The notes beneath the pieces were generated by a model. It searched no databases and was not told the DNA's origin. It worked only from the letters and a program-made list of their open reading frames with translations. Shown here in pieces: positions 22,234 through 63,495 of a stretch of 64,000 nt of DNA. Position numbers and translations under genes: made by a program. Source of the stretch: Paludibacteraceae bacterium (GTDB lineage: Bacteria; Bacteroidota; Bacteroidia; Bacteroidales; Paludibacteraceae); NCBI GenBank assembly GCA_017464025.1, contig JAFUEI010000024.1, positions 13,070 through 77,069 of the forward strand, given 5' to 3'. The stretch's first letter is position 1. Each line of letters opens with the position of its first letter.

Positions 22234-23352
22234 ATGAACTACCTGATTTCCGGAGGCGGAACAGGGGGACATATCTTCCCCGCCGTCAGTATCGCCAACG
22301 CTTTGCGTGAGCTGCAGCCCGACTGCAAGATTTTGTTTGTAGGCGCCCTCGGCCGCATGGAGATGGAGCGTGTACCCCAGGCCGGCTACGAGATTGTAGG
22401 CCTGCCTGTACGCGGCTTCAACCGCAAGAACCTGCTGGCCAATGCGTCCGTACTGTGGGACCTCATGCGTTCGATGCGCATGGCGCGCAAGATTGTCAAA
22501 CGCTTCAAGCCCGATGTGGCGGTCGGCGTAGGCGGCTATGCCAGCGGTGCCGCCATGAAGGTGGCCGCCCGCATGGGGGTGCCCGTGCTGCTGCAGGAGC
22601 AGAACGGCTTTGCCGGCGTGACCAACAAACTGCTCAAAGACGATGCCGCTAAGATATGCGTCGCCTACGAAGGCATGGAACGCTTCTTCCCCAAGGAGAA
22701 AATCATCCTCACCGGCAACCCTGTGCGGCAGAATCTCGAAGGCGGCAGCCGTGAGGAGGCGGTACGTCTCTTCGGATTGGCCCCCGAGAAGAAGACCCTG
22801 CTCATCATCGGCGGTTCGCTCGGCGCACGCACCATCAACGAGAGCCTTATCGCCTCTCTTGACAAGCTCAGCGAAGCCGGCATCAACGTTATCTGGCAGA
22901 CCGGCAAGACCTACTACGACCGTTGCCGCGAGGCGCTGCAGGCCGCCGGCGATGCCGTTGTAAGCGACGACAGCGTACGCCTCGGCAACATCCGCTGCAC
23001 CGCCTTCCTCAGCCGCATGGACCTGGCCTATGCCGCCGCCGACCTTGTGGTGTCACGGGCAGGGGCAAGCAGCATCTCCGAGTTGTGTCTGTTAGGCAAG
23101 CCCTGTATTCTCGTGCCCTCACCCAACGTGGCAGAAGACCATCAGACCCACAACGCGATGGCGTTGGTAAGAAAAGAGGCCGCCGTGCTCGTGAAAGACG
23201 TTGAGGCCGGCGAACGGCTCATACCGGAAACGCTCACCCTTATAGCCGACGACGCGCATCTCACCGCCCTTAGCCGCAACATCCTCACGCTTGCGCAGCG
23301 CGACTCGGCCCGCCGCATCGCCCAGGAAGTGATTGCCCTCGCACAGCGATAG
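22234..23352 (+). CDS. murG: UDP-GlcNAc:lipid I N-acetylglucosaminyltransferase MurG
   Basis: MNYLISGGGTGGHIFPAVSIANAL. The ORF track start at 22087 overlaps ftsW and is rejected. Confidence 0.93.
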   Translation: MNYLISGGGTGGHIFPAVSIANALRELQPDCKILFVGALGRMEMERVPQAGYEIVGLPVRGFNRKNLLANASVLWDLMRSMRMARKIVKRFKPDVAVGVGGYASGAAMKVAARMGVPVLLQEQNGFAGVTNKLLKDDAAKICVAYEGMERFFPKEKIILTGNPVRQNLEGGSREEAVRLFGLAPEKKTLLIIGGSLGARTINESLIASLDKLSEAGINVIWQTGKTYYDRCREALQAAGDAVVSDDSVRLGNIRCTAFLSRMDLAYAAADLVVSRAGASSISELCLLGKPCILVPSPNVAEDHQTHNAMALVRKEAAVLVKDVEAGERLIPETLTLIADDAHLTALSRNILTLAQRDSARRIAQEVIALAQR

Positions 23353-23376
23353 AGCGGCAGCAATAGAGTCTCAAAG

Positions 23377-23397
23377 GTCTATAGAATCCATAGACTC
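23377..23397. repeat. Left arm of the 21-bp perfect inverted repeat
   Basis: GTCTATAGAATCCATAGACTC, embedded in tandem CATAGAMTC-like units (about 23372-23430). Confidence 0.95.
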
Positions 23398-23470
23398 CAT
23401 AGAATCTATATAATTCATAGACCCTATAGCAATAATCGATTCCTCTAACCCCGACAACTCTACCACCAAT

Positions 23471-57173: not shown

Positions 57174-57812
57174 ATGAGCCGCCTTTCCTTCCATAAACTG
57201 ACCGCCGTTTCGGCGCAGTTGCTTTCCGCTGTCTGCTACCCGATGCTGATGCCCGTATGGGCTATGCTGTTGCTGTGTGCGGCTGTCAGCCGCTATGCGG
57301 CCCCCTTGCCTGCTGCCTATACGGCCTTTGTCATCGGCGGCACGGCGCTGTTCTGCTTCCTTGTCCCGCTCCTCGTTGTGCTGCTGCTCATCCGTCAAGG
57401 AGTCGTGACCGACCTCTATATCAACAATAGCCGCGAGCGTACCCTCCCCTATGTGTACAGTCTGGTCTCTATGCTCGTATGGGTCTTCTTCCTTTGGCAG
57501 GTGGTCAAGATGCCGGCCGTGGTTACGCTCATGGCGCTGGCCGGAACGATGGTACTCGCACTCGTGGCACTCATCAACCGCTGGTGGAAGATATCCGTCC
57601 ATCTGGCGGCCTTCGGCGGTCTCACGGGGGCGGTATGCGGCTACTGCTGGCACGCCTCCCTCAACCCGACGCTGCTCATCTCCCTGTTTTTTATCGGGGC
57701 TCTGCTGCTCATGCTGGCGCGCCTGCGCTTGAACGCCCATACCCCGTTGCAGCTCGTCTGCGGCTACCTGCTCGGACTCTGTCTCACCTTCCTTCCCGCC
57801 CTCTTCTGCTGA
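57174..57812 (+). CDS. PAP2-superfamily membrane phosphatase (candidate lipid phosphatase)
   Basis: 212 aa with 5-6 TM segments. The PAP2 C2/C3-like motifs KISVHLAAFGG and AHTPLQLVCGYLLG are present. Confidence 0.6.
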   Translation: MSRLSFHKLTAVSAQLLSAVCYPMLMPVWAMLLLCAAVSRYAAPLPAAYTAFVIGGTALFCFLVPLLVVLLLIRQGVVTDLYINNSRERTLPYVYSLVSMLVWVFFLWQVVKMPAVVTLMALAGTMVLALVALINRWWKISVHLAAFGGLTGAVCGYCWHASLNPTLLISLFFIGALLLMLARLRLNAHTPLQLVCGYLLGLCLTFLPALFC

Positions 57813-57843
57813 CAGCCCCCTTGCGTGAATCAGCAAAAAAGCG

Positions 57844-57851
57844 TATCTTTG
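57844..57851 (+). promoter_or_regulatory. -7 box TATCTTTG heading a non-coding region
   Basis: TATCTTTGCCAGCG lies 32 nt after the PAP2 stop. No ORF starts within the next 350 nt or so. Confidence 0.45.
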
Positions 57852-57966
57852 CCAGCGCTATCATACATATATCCATTTTCTCAAACATCCTTTTGCCTAT
57901 GAACCACCACGTGCTGTAAAGGCAGCACACACACATACATACTTAAAAGCGTTACGCTTCAATACT

Positions 57967-58102
57967 TGGTCTCTACAAAAACCGGACACTTTTGTTAGAA
58001 ACTATTACACCGAGGAAAAAGCAGTGATGCTCACGCTTTAGCGTGGGCTTTTTCCGTAAATATCAGGTGTAATAAGGTAGTCCGGTAAATCCTCAGAGAC
58101 CA
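57967..58102 (+). ncRNA. Candidate structured RNA (five nested helices); identity unknown. Could be an sRNA or a cis-leader of the downstream glycan-modification operon
   Basis: P1 TGGTCTCT/AGAGACCA (57967-74/58095-102). P2 ACCGGAC/GTCCGGT (57981-87/58080-86). P3 ATTACACC/GGTGTAAT (58004-11/58066-73). P4 GGAAAAAGC/GCTTTTTCC (58014-22/58047-55). P5 TCACGC/GCGTGG with loop TTTA (58031-46). The G-U pair favours the + strand. Extra hairpins lie at 57911-28 and 57947-59. Confidence 0.4.
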
Positions 58103-58209
58103 GATATTAAGCAAACGAAAAGTCTGCGCTTTTTTGTGTATGTATATAGCTGAAACAAACGCTTATACTCCCAAACTCTTCACTCCTGTACTCCCTGACT
58201 CCTTCGCCT

Positions 58210-59151
58210 ATGTGTTCCATGGAAAATATAATGATATCCGTTGTTTCTCCCGTCTATCGCGGAGAAAAGATGCTAAAGGAATTGGTGCGCCGCAACGTCG
58301 AAGCACTATCAACTGTCACGCCTGACTACGAAATCATCCTCGTCAACGATGCCTCACCCGACAACTCTTGGGCGGCTATCGAACTGGAGTGCGCCAAGAA
58401 CCCGCGTGTCAAAGGTCTCAACCTCTCCCGCAATTTCGGTCAGCACTATGCCATCACTGCCGGTCTTAGTTATGCCTCCGGCGAATGGGTGGTAGTCATG
58501 GACTGCGACCTGCAAGACCGTCCGGAGGAGATTCCGAATCTCTACGCCAAAGCCCAAGAGGGATATGATTCCGTATTGGCGCAACGTATTCAGCGTTCGC
58601 ACGGATGGTTCAAACGCATGGGCTCCAAATGCTTCTACAACGTATTCTCCTACCTGACAGAAACCCGGCAGGACGCATCTGTAGCCAATTTCGGCATATA
58701 CAACCGCAAAGTCATTGATGCAGTGCTATCTATGGGTGACGCGATGCGCTATTTCCCGACACAAATTCAATGGGTCGGTTTCCGCAAGGCCTATCTCCCC
58801 ATTCAGCATGACGAGCGGGCCGAAGGCAAATCAACCTATAATATCAGCCGCCTTTTCCATCTCGCTTTCGACACCATTATTTCCTTCTCCGACAAGCCGA
58901 TGCGTCTCATGGTACAGATGGGGCTGGCCGTAACACTTGTTTCATTTGTCGTTGGCATCGTCTTCATCATCCGTTACTGCCTGGGGCTCATCGAAGTGAT
59001 GGGATTTGCCAGCCTGATTATTTCCCTTTGGTTGCTTGGCGGAATCATCATTTCGCTCATCGGTGTCGTGGGCATCTATCTCGGCAAACTCTTTGAGAAA
59101 GCCAAAGAACGCCCGACCTTTATTGTAAACGATAAATGCAATATAGACTGA
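58210..59151 (+). CDS. GT2 polyprenyl-phosphate glycosyltransferase (GtrB/ArnC-like)
   Basis: ISVVSPVYRGE...EIILVNDASPDNS...NLSRNFGQHYAITAGL...VVMDCDLQDRPEEIP, plus two C-terminal TM helices. Alternative starts are at 58219 and 58231. Confidence 0.88.
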   Translation: MCSMENIMISVVSPVYRGEKMLKELVRRNVEALSTVTPDYEIILVNDASPDNSWAAIELECAKNPRVKGLNLSRNFGQHYAITAGLSYASGEWVVVMDCDLQDRPEEIPNLYAKAQEGYDSVLAQRIQRSHGWFKRMGSKCFYNVFSYLTETRQDASVANFGIYNRKVIDAVLSMGDAMRYFPTQIQWVGFRKAYLPIQHDERAEGKSTYNISRLFHLAFDTIISFSDKPMRLMVQMGLAVTLVSFVVGIVFIIRYCLGLIEVMGFASLIISLWLLGGIIISLIGVVGIYLGKLFEKAKERPTFIVNDKCNID

Positions 59152-59846
59152 TGGATATTCGCTCATTACAATGGGATTCAGACTTCTTCGGCTTGCGTAT
59201 CGGTCGTGCAGACTTGCAGACAAAAGCAGATGCACTTGATTTGCGCGCGATACATGAGGAGTTGGAACAGCAATACAATCTGCTGTATATCTTTGACGCC
59301 CATGCAGTAGGATTTGAGGCGGATGGAGCCCAACTGGTGGATGAAAAAATCCTGTATAGCAAGCCATGCGAACCGCGCAAAAAATACGAAGCCGTATCCT
59401 TCTATCAAGGTGCAAGTCCATCCGATGACTTGTATCGTTTGGCTTTGGTCAGTGGTGGTTACTCTCGCTTTAAGTTAGACAAGCGACTTCCCAAAGGCAG
59501 TTATCAACGGCTATACAACCGTTGGATAGAAAATGCATGTCCTAAAGAAGGAACCAATAAACAGATCTTGCTTTTCAAAGATGAGCAGAATGTAGCTCGC
59601 GGAATGATAACTATTGATTATCAGGACGAGTTAGGGCACATCGGTTTAGTTGCCGTAGATACAGATGTGCAACACCAAGGAATTGGCGGCAAGATTATGT
59701 CCACCTTGGATGGCTACCTATTTCATCAAGGCGTGAAAACCCTCGAAGTCCCGACACAAAAAGCCAATACCGATGCCTGCCGTTGGTACGAAAAGAACGG
59801 CTTTACCATACAATCTGTCACTCCCATTTATCATTGGTGGCTATAA
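59151..59846 (+). CDS. GNAT acetyltransferase resembling dTDP-4-amino-4,6-dideoxy-sugar N-acetyltransferase (WecD-like)
   Basis: MDIRSLQWDSDFFGLRIGRADL is the N-terminal signature shared with WecD. The GNAT core is GLVAVDTDVQHQGIGGKIM...NTDACRWYEKNGF. It has a TGATG overlap with the GT2 gene. Confidence 0.7.
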   Translation: MDIRSLQWDSDFFGLRIGRADLQTKADALDLRAIHEELEQQYNLLYIFDAHAVGFEADGAQLVDEKILYSKPCEPRKKYEAVSFYQGASPSDDLYRLALVSGGYSRFKLDKRLPKGSYQRLYNRWIENACPKEGTNKQILLFKDEQNVARGMITIDYQDELGHIGLVAVDTDVQHQGIGGKIMSTLDGYLFHQGVKTLEVPTQKANTDACRWYEKNGFTIQSVTPIYHWWL

Positions 59847-59863
59847 TAATATTATTAAGGATT

Positions 59864-61039
59864 ATGATTGAAAGAATACGAAGAATATTGAAAGGGAACA
59901 TTGATGCGATATGTGTCTTTGTGTTTATGCTGTGTGTATTCTCTTATATTATGTTTGTAATTAAAGAAGAAAGTGATTTAATGGCACACGCGGCTATCGC
60001 GAAAGAAATGTTAGAGGAGCATAGATTATTTACGACAAACTTTTTGATGTATTTCTTAGTCAATCTATTGACACTTTTTAGCGGAGCTGATGATATGATG
60101 AGAATTGTTCTCGTTCTACTCATATCATTGGCAAACACAGCAAAATACATTCTTGTACGAGAAGCATTTAGCGAGTGGACTTCTGTTAGGACAGCAAAAT
60201 GGGCTTCAATAGCAATGCTCTTTGTGTATGTTATACCACTAATGTATTTCTTAAAGCCATTAGGAATTTTCCTATCTGCTGATAATATGTATACTGGATA
60301 TTATGTCCCTAATGTTTGGCATAATTCCACCATACTATGCATGATGCCCTTTGCTATTACTTGTTATTTGCTCTCAGTTAAGCAATTCTCAGAATATTCG
60401 GTAAAACGGAACTGGCTTATTATGATACTATTGTCGTTAAGTGTTCTCATAAAGCCAAGTTTCTTCTTTGTGTATGTGTTTGCATTCCCGATTATTATGT
60501 TGAATAAGTATGGCTTACACAAAGAATTTTTCCACTCTTTACTACCGCTATTTGTGGGTGGAGTTTGTCTCGCGTTTGAATACGTGACCATTTATTATAA
60601 CGGCGGAAATGACAATAGTAGCGTAGTCATTGACATAGTTCAGTTGTTCACTTCCGGTTTTTGGAAATCGCATATCTTATATTTAACGGTTTCTCTTTCT
60701 CTACCAATATTATTCCTTTGTTTGTATGGTCGCACTATCGTTCAAGACCGAGAGTTTTGGTTTGTTCTAATAATGATTATATGCGGATTAGGAATGATGT
60801 GGTGTTTTAAGGAAACAGGACCACGCGCAACACATGGAAACTTTAATTGGCAAGCTATAGCGGCTATGTGGTTTGTCTATTTTTACATTCTTAAAACCGT
60901 CATAACAGGCGGCGAAGAATCAGTGTCTGCTGATAGGGGGGGGTATTCGCGATTTGCTATACTCCTCGCCTTTGGATTGCATGTTTTAATGGGCGTTGTA
61001 TATTTAGGTAAATTCATCATTACACACAATTTCGGATAG
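59864..61039 (+). CDS. Polytopic membrane protein, putative GT-C-type glycosyltransferase/polymerase
   Basis: 391 aa with more than 10 predicted TM helices, in an AT-rich segment. It lies between the GNAT gene and the SMR-like flippase gene. The function is inferred from context only. Confidence 0.6.
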   Translation: MIERIRRILKGNIDAICVFVFMLCVFSYIMFVIKEESDLMAHAAIAKEMLEEHRLFTTNFLMYFLVNLLTLFSGADDMMRIVLVLLISLANTAKYILVREAFSEWTSVRTAKWASIAMLFVYVIPLMYFLKPLGIFLSADNMYTGYYVPNVWHNSTILCMMPFAITCYLLSVKQFSEYSVKRNWLIMILLSLSVLIKPSFFFVYVFAFPIIMLNKYGLHKEFFHSLLPLFVGGVCLAFEYVTIYYNGGNDNSSVVIDIVQLFTSGFWKSHILYLTVSLSLPILFLCLYGRTIVQDREFWFVLIMIICGLGMMWCFKETGPRATHGNFNWQAIAAMWFVYFYILKTVITGGEESVSADRGGYSRFAILLAFGLHVLMGVVYLGKFIITHNFG

Positions 61040-61045
61040 GGAGAA

Positions 61046-61381
61046 ATGACAAGATTAGCAACATATAGTATCTTAGTTGGCATCAATCTCTTGTATGCAT
61101 GCGTGACGCTGTTTACCAAATACGCCTCGCAGCAGGAGTTTATGTCGCTTGCTTATTGCCTCGGCTTAGCGGGTGCGATAGTTGTTATGGAAGTTTATGC
61201 CATAGGTTGGCAGCAGATACTGAAACGTGTTGAACTCAGTACAGCGTATATGTTCAAAGGCACAAGTCTCATCTTTATCATGTTGCTGGCATGGATGCTT
61301 TTCGGCGAACGGATTACGCTCAACAACATACTCGGTGCCTGTATAATAATAACCGGCATCGCGCTCTATGCAAAAGAATAA
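61046..61381 (+). CDS. SMR/EamA-like 4-TM protein (ArnE/ArnF-like flippase subunit)
   Basis: 111 aa with 4 TM segments. It shares size and architecture with E. coli ArnE/F (…AYMFKGTSLIFIMLLAWMLFGERITLNNILGACIIITGI). Confidence 0.65.
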   Translation: MTRLATYSILVGINLLYACVTLFTKYASQQEFMSLAYCLGLAGAIVVMEVYAIGWQQILKRVELSTAYMFKGTSLIFIMLLAWMLFGERITLNNILGACIIITGIALYAKE

Positions 61382-61446
61382 ACATCGCCGGATAAAACGG
61401 CAAAAAGAGATCTTTGAAATATTTTGATAAAATGCAATAAATGCTG

Positions 61447-61494
61447 ACTTCTTTGCCAAATCTATCATTTGCTACGTAGATTCGGCAAAGAAGT
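61447..61494. terminator. 17-bp inverted repeat (one mismatch) between convergent genes; left boundary hairpin of the ATPase cassette
   Basis: ACTTCTTTGCCAAATCT (61447-63) and AGATTCGGCAAAGAAGT (61478-94). Confidence 0.5.
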
Positions 61495-61502
61495 ATGGTT
61501 TG

Positions 61503-62921
61503 TCATACAAACAAATCGTCCATTGTTAGTTGGTTCGGAATGTCATTTGCATACGCATTTCGCACCAACCCAAAGGATGTGATCATGACGATTCGAACAC
61601 CCTTACGAGTCTTTGTGGCATACTCAAAAACACTCATCTTATGCCGTAACTCCGCGTCATACTCTTTCGTAAGCAGAAAAGGTTTGGAAGAAAACTTGAT
61701 CTCGCAAAGGTTGATAATTTGATCACTCCTGTCTATCAGCATATCAATTTGTGCTCCTTCTGGAAAATCTTCTGTTGGACGGAATGACCATGAGTATATA
61801 TTGCATGCTATTCCGGAAATGCCGAGAGCAATCAAAATCTGCCGTTCATGCTGCATACAGACCCGTTCAAAAGCTAACCCGCTCCATGCACGATAGGACG
61901 GAGAAGTGGCTATTGTTTGCCATTGGATGCGGTTAGCTTTATTGGTATCTGCCATAAACTTGAAATAGAATAGCGTAAAATTGTCAATTAACTGAAAAAG
62001 TGTATCTTTCTTGCGTTTGCCAATAGCAGCGTAAGAACGAATAAAATCGCATTGCTCCAATTCTTCCAGAATTTGAGACAGCCTTCCGCCTTGTTTGGTC
62101 CCTAATGAATGAATGATTTCTTCACGTGTCATTCCGGCTTTTTTCTTCCCCAAAGCTGTAACTACATCAATGTACGGCTGCGGAGAACGGAAAAGTGATG
62201 CATACAAGGCATTGAACTCATCGTTGAGCTCTGCATTCGGTTGAAAAAATAATTGGTCAATGTTCTGCATCCATGAGTTACTGGCATTTAGAAGTCGCCA
62301 ATAGAAAGGAATACCGCCTAAAATCATATAGGTTTCTAATATGCTTTGTCGGTTCATTCCCAGTTGTCGTGCCTTTGCATACATCTCGCACTCATGCAAG
62401 GTAAATGGTCGGAGATAAATCTGTGCGGTTAGCCGGTTATGCAGTCCTCCGTGGTTTTTGACGATTTTGCTGATGATCCATGAAGTGGCACTACCGCAAA
62501 CAATGAGCACAACATCATTTCGCATATTTGCCCAACCATTCCAGAAATGATCTAATGCGCTCACGAAATGGCTGCCTACTGTGTCCATCCACGGCAATTC
62601 GTCAATAAACACGATTTTCTTTCCTGCCGGTAATGCTGCTAAATGCTGTCCTAAATAAAAGAAAGCGTCTGACCAACTATGCAGCTTGGGAATCACGTTC
62701 ATCCCACTTCGTATGAGCGAAAGACGAAACTCCGCTAACTGCTCAGTTTTAGTGCCATCTTTTAAACCGGTATGCTCAAATGCAAACTTTCCTTCGAAGG
62801 TTTGCCTGACAAGGTACGTTTTGCCGACACGTCTGCGACCATAGATAGCAACAAACTCAGACTCGTCGCTATTTAACAATGATAGCAAACGTTTTTGTTC
62901 ATTCTCTCGTCCTAATAGCAT
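61503..62921 (-). CDS. AAA-type ATPase (Arch_ATPase-like) with DUF234 / PD-(D/E)xK-like C-terminal domain
   Basis: MLLGRENEQKRLL..., Walker A GRRRVGKT and Walker B IVFIDELP. The C-terminal GAQIDMLIDRSDQIINLCEIKF is nuclease-like. The start at 62921 is chosen; the ORF track start at 63026 runs through the upstream hairpin. Confidence 0.85.
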   Translation of the reverse strand: MLLGRENEQKRLLSLLNSDESEFVAIYGRRRVGKTYLVRQTFEGKFAFEHTGLKDGTKTEQLAEFRLSLIRSGMNVIPKLHSWSDAFFYLGQHLAALPAGKKIVFIDELPWMDTVGSHFVSALDHFWNGWANMRNDVVLIVCGSATSWIISKIVKNHGGLHNRLTAQIYLRPFTLHECEMYAKARQLGMNRQSILETYMILGGIPFYWRLLNASNSWMQNIDQLFFQPNAELNDEFNALYASLFRSPQPYIDVVTALGKKKAGMTREEIIHSLGTKQGGRLSQILEELEQCDFIRSYAAIGKRKKDTLFQLIDNFTLFYFKFMADTNKANRIQWQTIATSPSYRAWSGLAFERVCMQHERQILIALGISGIACNIYSWSFRPTEDFPEGAQIDMLIDRSDQIINLCEIKFSSKPFLLTKEYDAELRHKMSVFEYATKTRKGVRIVMITSFGLVRNAYANDIPNQLTMDDLFV

Positions 62922-62956
62922 AGTAGTATTTTTTTGATGGTTGACGAAAAACGCTG

Positions 62957-62964
62957 CAAAGGAA
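62957..62964 (-). promoter_or_regulatory. Weak -7-like box (minus strand TTCCTTTGCAGCG) for the ATPase gene
   Basis: Plus-strand CAAAGGAA at 62957-62964. It deviates from TAnnTTTG at position 2. Confidence 0.3.
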
Positions 62965-63000
62965 CAACTTTTTTGCCAAATGTACAAATAAAAAGCAAGA

Positions 63001-63044
63001 TTTGGCAAAGAAAATGGCATTTTCATGTACTTTCTTTGCCAAAT
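63001..63044. repeat. 14-bp perfect inverted repeat with the same arm sequence as the 61447-61494 hairpin
   Basis: ATTTGGCAAAGAAA (63001-14) and TTTCTTTGCCAAAT (63031-44). An extra half-site TTTTTTGCCAAATGT lies at 62970-62984. Confidence 0.9.
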
Positions 63045-63162: not shown

Positions 63163-63495
63163 ATGTATAAATGCCTCGTCATATTATCCGTCTTTGCTGC
63201 TGCGTGTGCGCAGATGCTGCTGAAGCAAGGAGCACGGCAGAACTATGCCGGCTTCTGGCGCCAATACCTCAATCCGTGGGTCATTGGCGGTTATGCCATC
63301 ATGGCTTGCAGCCTCGTGCTTAATATCTTCTGCATGAGCCGAGGTGTACAAATCAAAGAGGCAAGTACTATTGAATCATTAAGTTACCTCTTTGTGCCGT
63401 TTATGGCATTAATCCTGTTCCGTGAACGCATCACCTTGCGCAAAGCCGGAGCAATAGCAATTATAATAACCGGAGTAATATTATTTTTCTTGTAA
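63163..63495 (+). CDS. SMR/EamA-like 4-TM protein (second ArnE/ArnF-like flippase subunit)
   Basis: 110 aa with 4 TM segments (…LSYLFVPFMALILFRERITLRKAGAIAIIITGVILF). It is a paralog-like partner of the 61046 gene. Confidence 0.65.
   Translation: MYKCLVILSVFAAACAQMLLKQGARQNYAGFWRQYLNPWVIGGYAIMACSLVLNIFCMSRGVQIKEASTIESLSYLFVPFMALILFRERITLRKAGAIAIIITGVILFFL

Follow-up and report, generated by a model that had tools for sequence, protein, structure and literature searches.

A giant imperfect hairpin in the leader of a putative glycan-modification operon of a Paludibacteraceae bacterium and a candidate family of related leader RNAs

The leader gap and its genomic setting

The window considered here is a stretch of 64,000 nucleotides from a Paludibacteraceae genome, and positions given without a locus name refer to it. 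A leader gap of ∼400 bases precedes an operon whose first gene encodes a GT2 polyprenyl-phosphate glycosyltransferase, PgfS- or ArnC-like (58210-59151, + strand; the true start possibly lies at 58219 or 58231). The second, third and fourth genes encode a WecD-like GNAT (59136-59846), a 418-residue membrane protein (59783-61039) and an ArnE/F-like EamA protein (61046-61381). All family matches in the cassette lie below the curated cut-offs and we therefore use these names at the level of the family only; together the four genes suggest a lipid-carrier pathway that would modify a surface glycan. A first-pass annotation of this DNA had placed a structured non-coding region directly upstream of AT-rich glycan-modification genes, and the element described below does indeed occupy the leader of the GT2 operon. 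The gene on the other side of the gap (57174-57812, +) encodes a membrane protein that is found with 38-55% identity after rpoN in related MAGs; the same annotation had called it PAP2, a name that we have dropped since there is no match in Pfam-A or NCBIfam.

By its RpoN sequence the window lies near rumen Paludibacteraceae MAGs, with identities of at most 81%. A sample of 80 RpoN loci from GTDB genomes was used to examine synteny. The block of YbbR, DegT, RpoN and membrane-protein genes is kept in the relatives, where the next gene follows only 50-75 nt further on, and the gap, the GT2 cassette and any homologue of the element are absent from all 80 loci. The element thus sits exactly at a break in synteny, and the GC content falls from ∼58% to 39-46% at its position.

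A look-up of the exact GT2 protein of the window returned no record, and homologues with 82-92% identity are numerous; orthologues of the operon occur in gut and rumen Bacteroidales metagenomes. In loci L089, L095, L096 and L111 amino acid identities to the window are 85-93% for the GT2, 75-85% for the GNAT and 56-73% for the 418-residue protein, the last of these being represented in L095 and L096 by short N-terminal stretches only, while the EamA protein (85-87%) is found in L089 and L111 only. Homologues of the GT2 that lie in mid-operon (L082-L088 and L109) have no leader, and in L112 the operon is served by a plain promoter 30 nt upstream, with no rod. A 238-nt gap before the GT2 gene at L106:2764-3000, present also in L107 and L108, resembles a remnant of the N-terminus of another GT2 (ATGAAACTCAGTATAATCACCATTAATTACAAC...); it was considered as a leader and set aside because it reads like a gene remnant instead.

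Several further features of the surroundings are recorded here in their own right. An AAA ATPase gene (ATPase_2/AAA_14; 61503-63026, −) lies between two EamA genes (61046-61381 and 63163-63495), which are adjacent to one another in L082, L084 and L089. In L081, L110 and L111, too, the cassette is flanked by ATPase genes of a similar kind, so that the association of ATPase and cassette recurs. The convergent gap between EamA and ATPase genes (61321-61640) folds unusually well on both strands and is probably a bidirectional terminator. Far upstream, an AT-rich gap before a 179-residue gene (23352-23470) carries several tandem units of ∼9-10 nt, like CATAGAnTC, and is among the most stable folds of the window on the − strand.

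Promoter, rod and terminator-like signals of the window element

In order to locate promoters we have used the Bacteroidetes consensus TAnnTTTG/TTTG (PMC7366714). A candidate of this type spans 57821-57851 on the + strand and consists of TTG at 57821-23, an A-rich spacer of 20 nt and the −7 box TATCTTTG at 57844-51, exactly where the first-pass annotation had put it. This is the single TAnnTTTG in the gap (57813-58209) and it lies on the strand of the downstream gene; in the window as a whole the motif occurs 31 times, with 19 expected. Transcription is predicted to start at ∼57856-57860. The same layout of TTTG, 20-nt spacer and box is found in the leader of L081, the one other leader in which it was compared. 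A sigma-54 reading of TTTGCA was ruled out by eye, as there is no GG at −24.

Promoter and rod are bracketed by a perfect 10-nt inverted repeat, CAAAAAAGCG/CGCTTTTTTG (57834-57843 / 58127-58136), part of which, AAAAGCG, recurs at 57945-51. On reading the leader of L081 we found no counterpart, and we take the repeat to have arisen by chance or as a side effect of the basal helix. An invertible promoter (inverton) was rejected for this reason and because no recombinase was found among the neighboring genes that were scanned.

The ∼85-nt 5' part of the leader contains a small hairpin, GUGCUGU-AAAG-GCAGCAC (57911-57928, +). This and a second 5' hairpin at 57947-59 had been proposed previously, and both are borne out by the sequence. 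The hairpin at 57911-28 has no counterpart in the leader family described below, whose 5' domain is G-rich.

The dominant feature of the leader is a giant imperfect hairpin, or rod, at 57939-58139 (+), for which RNAfold gives 66 base pairs, 5 of them G-U. It is built from five helices, P1 (57967-74/58095-102, TGGTCTCT/AGAGACCA), P2 (57981-87/58080-86, ACCGGAC/GTCCGGT), P3 (58004-11/58066-73, ATTACACC/GGTGTAAT), P4 (58014-22/58047-55, GGAAAAAGC/GCTTTTTCC) and P5 (58031-46, TCACGC-TTTA-GCGTGG, with one G-U pair), together with three basal helices that RNAfold adds outside P1, namely AAAAGCGU/GCGCUUUU, GCUU/AAGC and AAUA/UAUU. P1 to P5, which had been nested by hand in the first-pass annotation, can be followed base by base on the + strand, and all five are recovered by RNAfold; the total of 38 bp over 136 nt that had been given is an underestimate of the rod. 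The asymmetric internal loop between P2 and P3 is likewise present, not as 16 versus 6 nucleotides but as 11 versus 0 in the minimum-energy fold. The largest loops of the rod are one-sided throughout (11 versus 0, 2 versus 10 and 8 versus 0).

The significance of this fold was assessed against 200 dinucleotide shuffles. For 57858-58140 on the + strand the minimum free energy is −80.3 kcal/mol (z = −5.56) and none of the 200 shuffles is as good, so that the leader is clearly distinct from shuffled sequence, a comparison that had been proposed along with the original claim. The rod alone gives z = −6.39 (+) and −5.94 (−). Since the − strand folds almost as well, the strand has been assigned from the promoter, the U-run and the orientation of the gene and not from folding; the G-U pair in P5, offered earlier as a sign of the + strand, is present, but folding on its own barely separates the two strands. 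When the window was scanned with a crude correction for GC content, the region came out in approximately the top 1% of 200-nt segments without being the first, and the occurrence of long unbranched folds turned out to be uninformative as a measure of rarity, with 55 pairs reached in 24 of 2,552 segments. These data support the presence of a genuine structure, distinct from random sequence, on the promoter strand.

The strand that forms the base of the rod on its 5' side has an alternative partner. Segments 1 and 2, AAAAGCGU and ACGCUU (57945-57959, +), can either pair with one another as a local hairpin or form the base of the rod through 58126-33 and 58109-12. The local hairpin at 57947-59 competes with the rod base in this way and, judging from the possible pairing, could be part of a switch; the covariation of the family described below does not favor it over the rod.

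Two terminator-like signals are present on the 3' side, each with the anatomy of an intrinsic terminator, a stem containing G+C followed by a U-run. The apical hairpin and the UUUUUCC that follows it (58029-58055, +) were picked up in a terminator scan and resemble an intrinsic terminator embedded in the rod. The outer 3' arm (58066-58143, +) then runs through the 3' strand of P3, AAGGU, the 3' strand of P2, a CCUC loop, the 3' strand of P1 and AAGC to GCGCUUUUUU, and within it the 3' strand of the basal helix, GCGC, leads into six U (58126-58135, +), the predicted point of termination. The run of T residues had been placed at 58130-36; six T are found at 58130-58135 and position 58136 is a G. 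Termination at 58126-58135 would release an RNA that is predicted to be ∼275 nt in length. What follows up to the start codon is a C/A-rich linker (58136-58209, +) that is unstructured (z = −0.26) and contains no −7 box; a second hairpin after the U-run was considered and discarded since its folding is insignificant (z = −0.26).

A search of the window against Rfam 15, the cmscan comparison that the first-pass annotation had suggested, returned nothing at the gathering score and only chance-level matches at E ≤ 10, and no family matches the element. As that annotation had reported from inspection for SRP and tmRNA, no SRP appears among the Rfam matches at E ≤ 10, nor does any of the known Bacteroidales motifs, and no tRNA or tmRNA was found. 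Because the region is structured, lies on the promoter strand in the leader of the GT2 operon and has no match in Rfam, its earlier description as a candidate novel cis-regulatory leader is a fair one.

Related leaders before orthologous operons

Among loci in which the GT2 gene heads the operon, six lineages (L081, L089/90, L091-94, L095, L096 and L110) have a long gap upstream of it. Each of these gaps contains a TAnnTTTG box and a leader, with 75-81% identity between the lineages. The GT2-linked members are located at L081:749-1115, L089:3631-3991, L091:3676-4037, L095:21-400, L096:1985-2352 (−) and L110:∼485-800. Two more distant members lie ahead of unrelated genes, one before the gene of a 174-residue P-loop protein (L098:1195-1588, −) and one before that of a 160-residue secreted protein (L101:41-380). 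A variant is found before a GT2 gene whose product is 85% identical to that of the window (L111:2855-3125), and L105 contains a fragment.

The family leader is a rod of ∼220 nt (z = −7.3 for L081), and the consensus of eight sequences comprises 74 pairs and ends in CCACGCUUUUCUUAUUU. The basal helix is GAAGGCGU/ACGCUUUU, followed by CUUAUUU, and the equivalent of segments 1 and 2 of the window reads GAAGGCGU...ACGCUU. In the alignment of the eight sequences 93.7% of cells are paired, versus 41-53% when the partners are slid, and 14 pairs are changed on both sides, versus 4-7 in the slid controls. Not one of 500 shuffles matches the family in percent paired, in the number of doubly changed pairs or cells or in covariation score, and 4 of 500 reach its value for further pair types. 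One-sided changes lead mostly to G-U, which pairs only in RNA of the + strand. Covariation and the G-U pattern together suggest that the structure is that of an RNA read from the strand of the gene and not a palindrome in DNA. The covariation analysis on homologous leaders that had been called for has a positive outcome for the family, which lies at the same place and has the same layout as the window element.

Position and orientation are also maintained. All eight members have a TAnnTTTG box 199-253 nt upstream of GCGTGGGC, and all copies of full length (those of the GT2-linked lineages, of L098, L101 and L111 and of the window) have the orientation of the next gene, whose start is 40-140 nt away. 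Between rod and start codon the eight full-length members have no −7 box; in L099, a truncated copy, there is a −7-like box between rod and gene.

Within the family the 3' arm is conserved far beyond the needs of pairing and includes an invariant block of 33 nt. L111 keeps AAAGGCGU, GGCGUGGGC and GUUCCACGCUUUUUUU, with basal helix and terminator retained, and has a different rod, which indicates that the interior of the rod is the changeable part. A search for the family in Rfam 15, performed with L081, produced no match at the gathering score and only chance-level matches at E ≤ 10, and we have found no description of it in the literature searched.

The 5' side of the family leaders provides some separate observations. 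The GT2-linked members share a conserved domain of ∼90 nt (L081:757-846 and equivalents) with the G-rich motif GCCGGGG..TGTGGGTGGG and a closing helix GUAAUG/CAUUAC for which covariation support is weak; L098, L101 and L111 are loosely similar here and the window has nothing of the kind, its 5' part being C/A-rich. A small ORF in this domain was discounted, as neither its length nor its frame is conserved among the aligned sequences and L098 lacks an ATG at this place. In L081 a promoter region of ∼55 nt (TTTG, 20-nt spacer, TACCTTTG) is duplicated (L081:105-158 and L081:706-759), with the second copy lying before an unrelated gene of 153 residues and without a rod.

The relation of the window element to this family was examined at several levels. 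In layout the two have much in common, including the GCGU/ACGC mini-hairpin, the rod and the AAGGU and CCUC of the 3' arm. The window rod is closed by AAAAGCGU/GCGCUUUU and then UU, which fits the family pattern AARGCGU/RCGCUUUU plus U-run, its 3' end reads AAGC...CGCUUUU and then a U-run as in the family, and the distance from −7 box to GCGTGGGC is 197 nt. A covariance model (R1), built without the window, was run over 128 kb; its best match is 57944-58140 (+), which covers the model from end to end with 14.9 bits and E ∼0.006. This match is a weak one. Scores of up to 14.0 bits are obtained for plain terminators in 882 kb of related DNA, whereas true members lie at 170-247 bits and even their antisense strands, at 18-37 bits, are above the window. 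A search of the window with the family profile by nhmmer gave no match.

Direct comparison of the 3' arms gives a clearer result. Aligned to the family 3' arms the outer 3' arm of the window has a mean score of 48.4, compared with 30.5 ± 1.65 for shuffles (z = 10.8), and 58069-58143 (+) ranks first among the 31,964 segments of 75 nt on both strands of the window, with a top score of 49.4 where the scan has a mean of 25.7 and a standard deviation of 3.7 and the next unrelated segment reaches 40.9. The 5' arm is marginal by the same measure (z = 3.0) and is not the top match in its scan. In the interior the window departs from the family, with an inner rod that is shorter and unrelated in sequence, no G-rich 5' domain and no copy of the invariant 33-nt core ACATATCGGCGTGGGCATTATTGTTTATTCTTG, of which GCGTGGGC (58041-48) is the sole piece retained. 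Taken as a whole, the comparison indicates that the window element is probably a divergent relative of the family that has kept the chassis and in which the interior was replaced or lost.

Relatives of the window version itself were not found. Neither blastn nor nhmmer recovered a close relative over all collected loci, and a pattern scan of metagenomes for both types returned five members of the family, five chance matches (four of them coding, the fifth being L102) and nothing of the window type. The element is present once in the 64-kb window, has no further copies in the 882 kb of related loci and was not found in plasmids, phages or viral contigs, which argues that it is not a multi-copy mobile repeat.

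A proposed conditional terminator and its alternatives

Our preferred interpretation, to which we assign roughly an even chance, is that the element is a strongly diverged member of an undescribed family of leader RNAs and functions as a conditional terminator of the GT2 operon. The −7 box at 57844 would drive an RNA that begins with a short 5' part and a hairpin of 200 nt, which together make up its first 280 nt. The base of this hairpin, AAAAGCGU/GCGCUUUU, runs straight into the U-run and could in this manner act as a conditional intrinsic terminator (attenuator). RNA polymerase would either stop at 58130-35, leaving an RNA of ∼275 nt that possibly persists as a by-product, or continue through the unstructured linker so that the operon is expressed, with some factor presumably tipping the balance between the two outcomes. 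With no −7 box after the rod, an unstructured linker and a U-run at the end of the rod, a conditional terminator is the simplest reading. The invariant core of the family suggests a specific reader, be it a protein or a ligand, that the window copy would escape or replace; lacking both the 33-nt core and the G-rich 5' domain this copy may work differently or be decaying.

Known systems offer partial parallels. The Shiga-toxin PR' transcript is reported to be a short RNA released by an intrinsic-terminator attenuator (PMC7547250), and attenuators of this type share with the element a promoter, an immediate hairpin plus U-run, downstream genes that require read-through and a terminated RNA that could itself have a function. 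The hairpin of the element is, in contrast, 5-10 times longer than the usual terminator stem. Closer in phylogeny are the leaders of Bacteroides capsule operons, in which opsX pause sites are read by UpxY proteins, paralogues of NusG (PMC11685472). As in those operons a long leader lies between a Bacteroidetes promoter and a surface-glycan operon, and an RNA hairpin coupled to control of elongation is the logic to be expected, but the pause hairpin there is ∼25 nt long versus ∼200 nt in the element. None of the 25 matches of the window to the opsX motif YGCGNAGCR falls within 57813-58209, and the operon is headed by the GT2 gene and not by upxY or upxZ. An ops-like GCGTAG is seen in some members of the giant-hairpin family and is not conserved.

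A strong hairpin and U-run immediately after a promoter would fit a stand-alone gene for a trans-acting sRNA of ∼275-300 nt equally well, with its position before the operon a matter of inherited synteny. Promoter, structured body and hairpin plus U-run are indeed the usual anatomy of intergenic sRNAs in Bacteroides (PMC7366714), family members are also found before the unrelated P-loop and secreted-protein genes of L098 and L101, and the invariant 33-nt block in the over-conserved 3' arm could be a binding or seed region. We nevertheless consider an sRNA gene unlikely. Every full-length copy is oriented with the next gene at a distance of 40-140 nt and, with the exception of the truncated L099, without an intervening −7 box, and if the invariant block were a conserved seed acting in trans, its absence from the window copy would be difficult to explain.

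It is also distinctly unlikely that the element is a non-functional relic or a palindrome at the level of DNA, for example a leader copy in decay, a MITE-like insertion or the scar of a recombination event. A relic would mark the junction between the YbbR-DegT-RpoN-membrane gene block and an imported AT-rich cassette, and the end of synteny right after the gene upstream of the gap, the fall in GC content from ∼58% to 39-46%, the loss of two conserved family modules from the window copy, the nearly equal folding of both strands and the partial copy in L105 are all consistent with this. Yet a sequence that has diverged beyond detection by the family profile retains 66 intact pairs, its interruptions take the form of asymmetric loops and not of the scattered mismatches expected of decay, and the G-U pattern of the family shows selection at the level of RNA. 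Palindromic repeats of the Correia or MITE type fold into hairpins when transcribed, and the element resembles them in being an imperfect palindrome of 150-200 nt beside a gene start and at a synteny break. It differs from them in that it is single-copy and that its family diverges through compensatory changes, not as near-identical copies.

The leaders of rnc and pnp, as well as Correia elements, provide examples of long leader hairpins that RNase III cleaves, and the rod could similarly be a processing or stability element, either cut by RNase III or protecting the 5' end, that sets the half-life of the operon mRNA. Its 66 pairs (74 in the family rod) make it long enough for a double-strand RNase. 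We regard this as improbable, because in every variant the basal helix is followed at once by a U-run, a sign of termination, and because the window helices, of 4-9 pairs between loops, would be poor substrates for RNase III.

A 6S-like RNA, as the first-pass annotation had hinted, or a metabolite riboswitch is very improbable: the ∼200-nt rod with its internal loops, asymmetric in the window, recalls 6S RNA (RF00013, RF01685) and the 5' leader position suits a riboswitch, but neither the window nor L081 has an Rfam match to 6S or a riboswitch, the window element has no 6S or 6S-Flavo match even at E ≤ 10, lacks a large central bubble open on both sides and is linked to an operon start, no curated riboswitch aptamer model matches the window or L081, and the genes that follow family members are functionally unrelated while the window lacks the conserved 5' domain. 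Of the idea of a riboswitch-like leader the position thus stands; the remainder is not supported, there being no known aptamer and family members before unrelated genes (L098 and L101).

Returning to conditional termination, we tentatively extend it, at somewhat less than even odds, to a more general proposal, that gut and rumen Bacteroidales possess an undescribed class of giant-hairpin leaders of 220-300 nt that gate read-through, of which the window holds a copy without the core. Such a leader would comprise its own promoter, a covarying rod, an invariant 33-nt core that probably docks a protein or ligand and a terminal U-run, and would control read-through into operons for envelope-glycan modification as well as into a few other genes. 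If this is true, a leader can exchange or lose its recognition module and still retain the chassis of rod and terminator.

Operons of the Arn, Gtr and Pgf type for surface glycans alter the appearance of gut and rumen bacteria to phages, host and antimicrobial peptides, and outside the UpxY capsule system little is known of how Bacteroidales control glycan modification. To our knowledge the phylum lacks Hfq, ProQ and CsrA. The window taken alone provides the smaller gain, one divergent and atypical copy; the main gain is that the same position in orthologous operons holds a covariation-supported RNA family outside Rfam. A conserved and covarying leader longer than 200 nt and without an entry in Rfam would represent a new class of regulatory RNA for the phylum, and its invariant core, rod and terminator offer a concrete handle for finding the factor that reads it.
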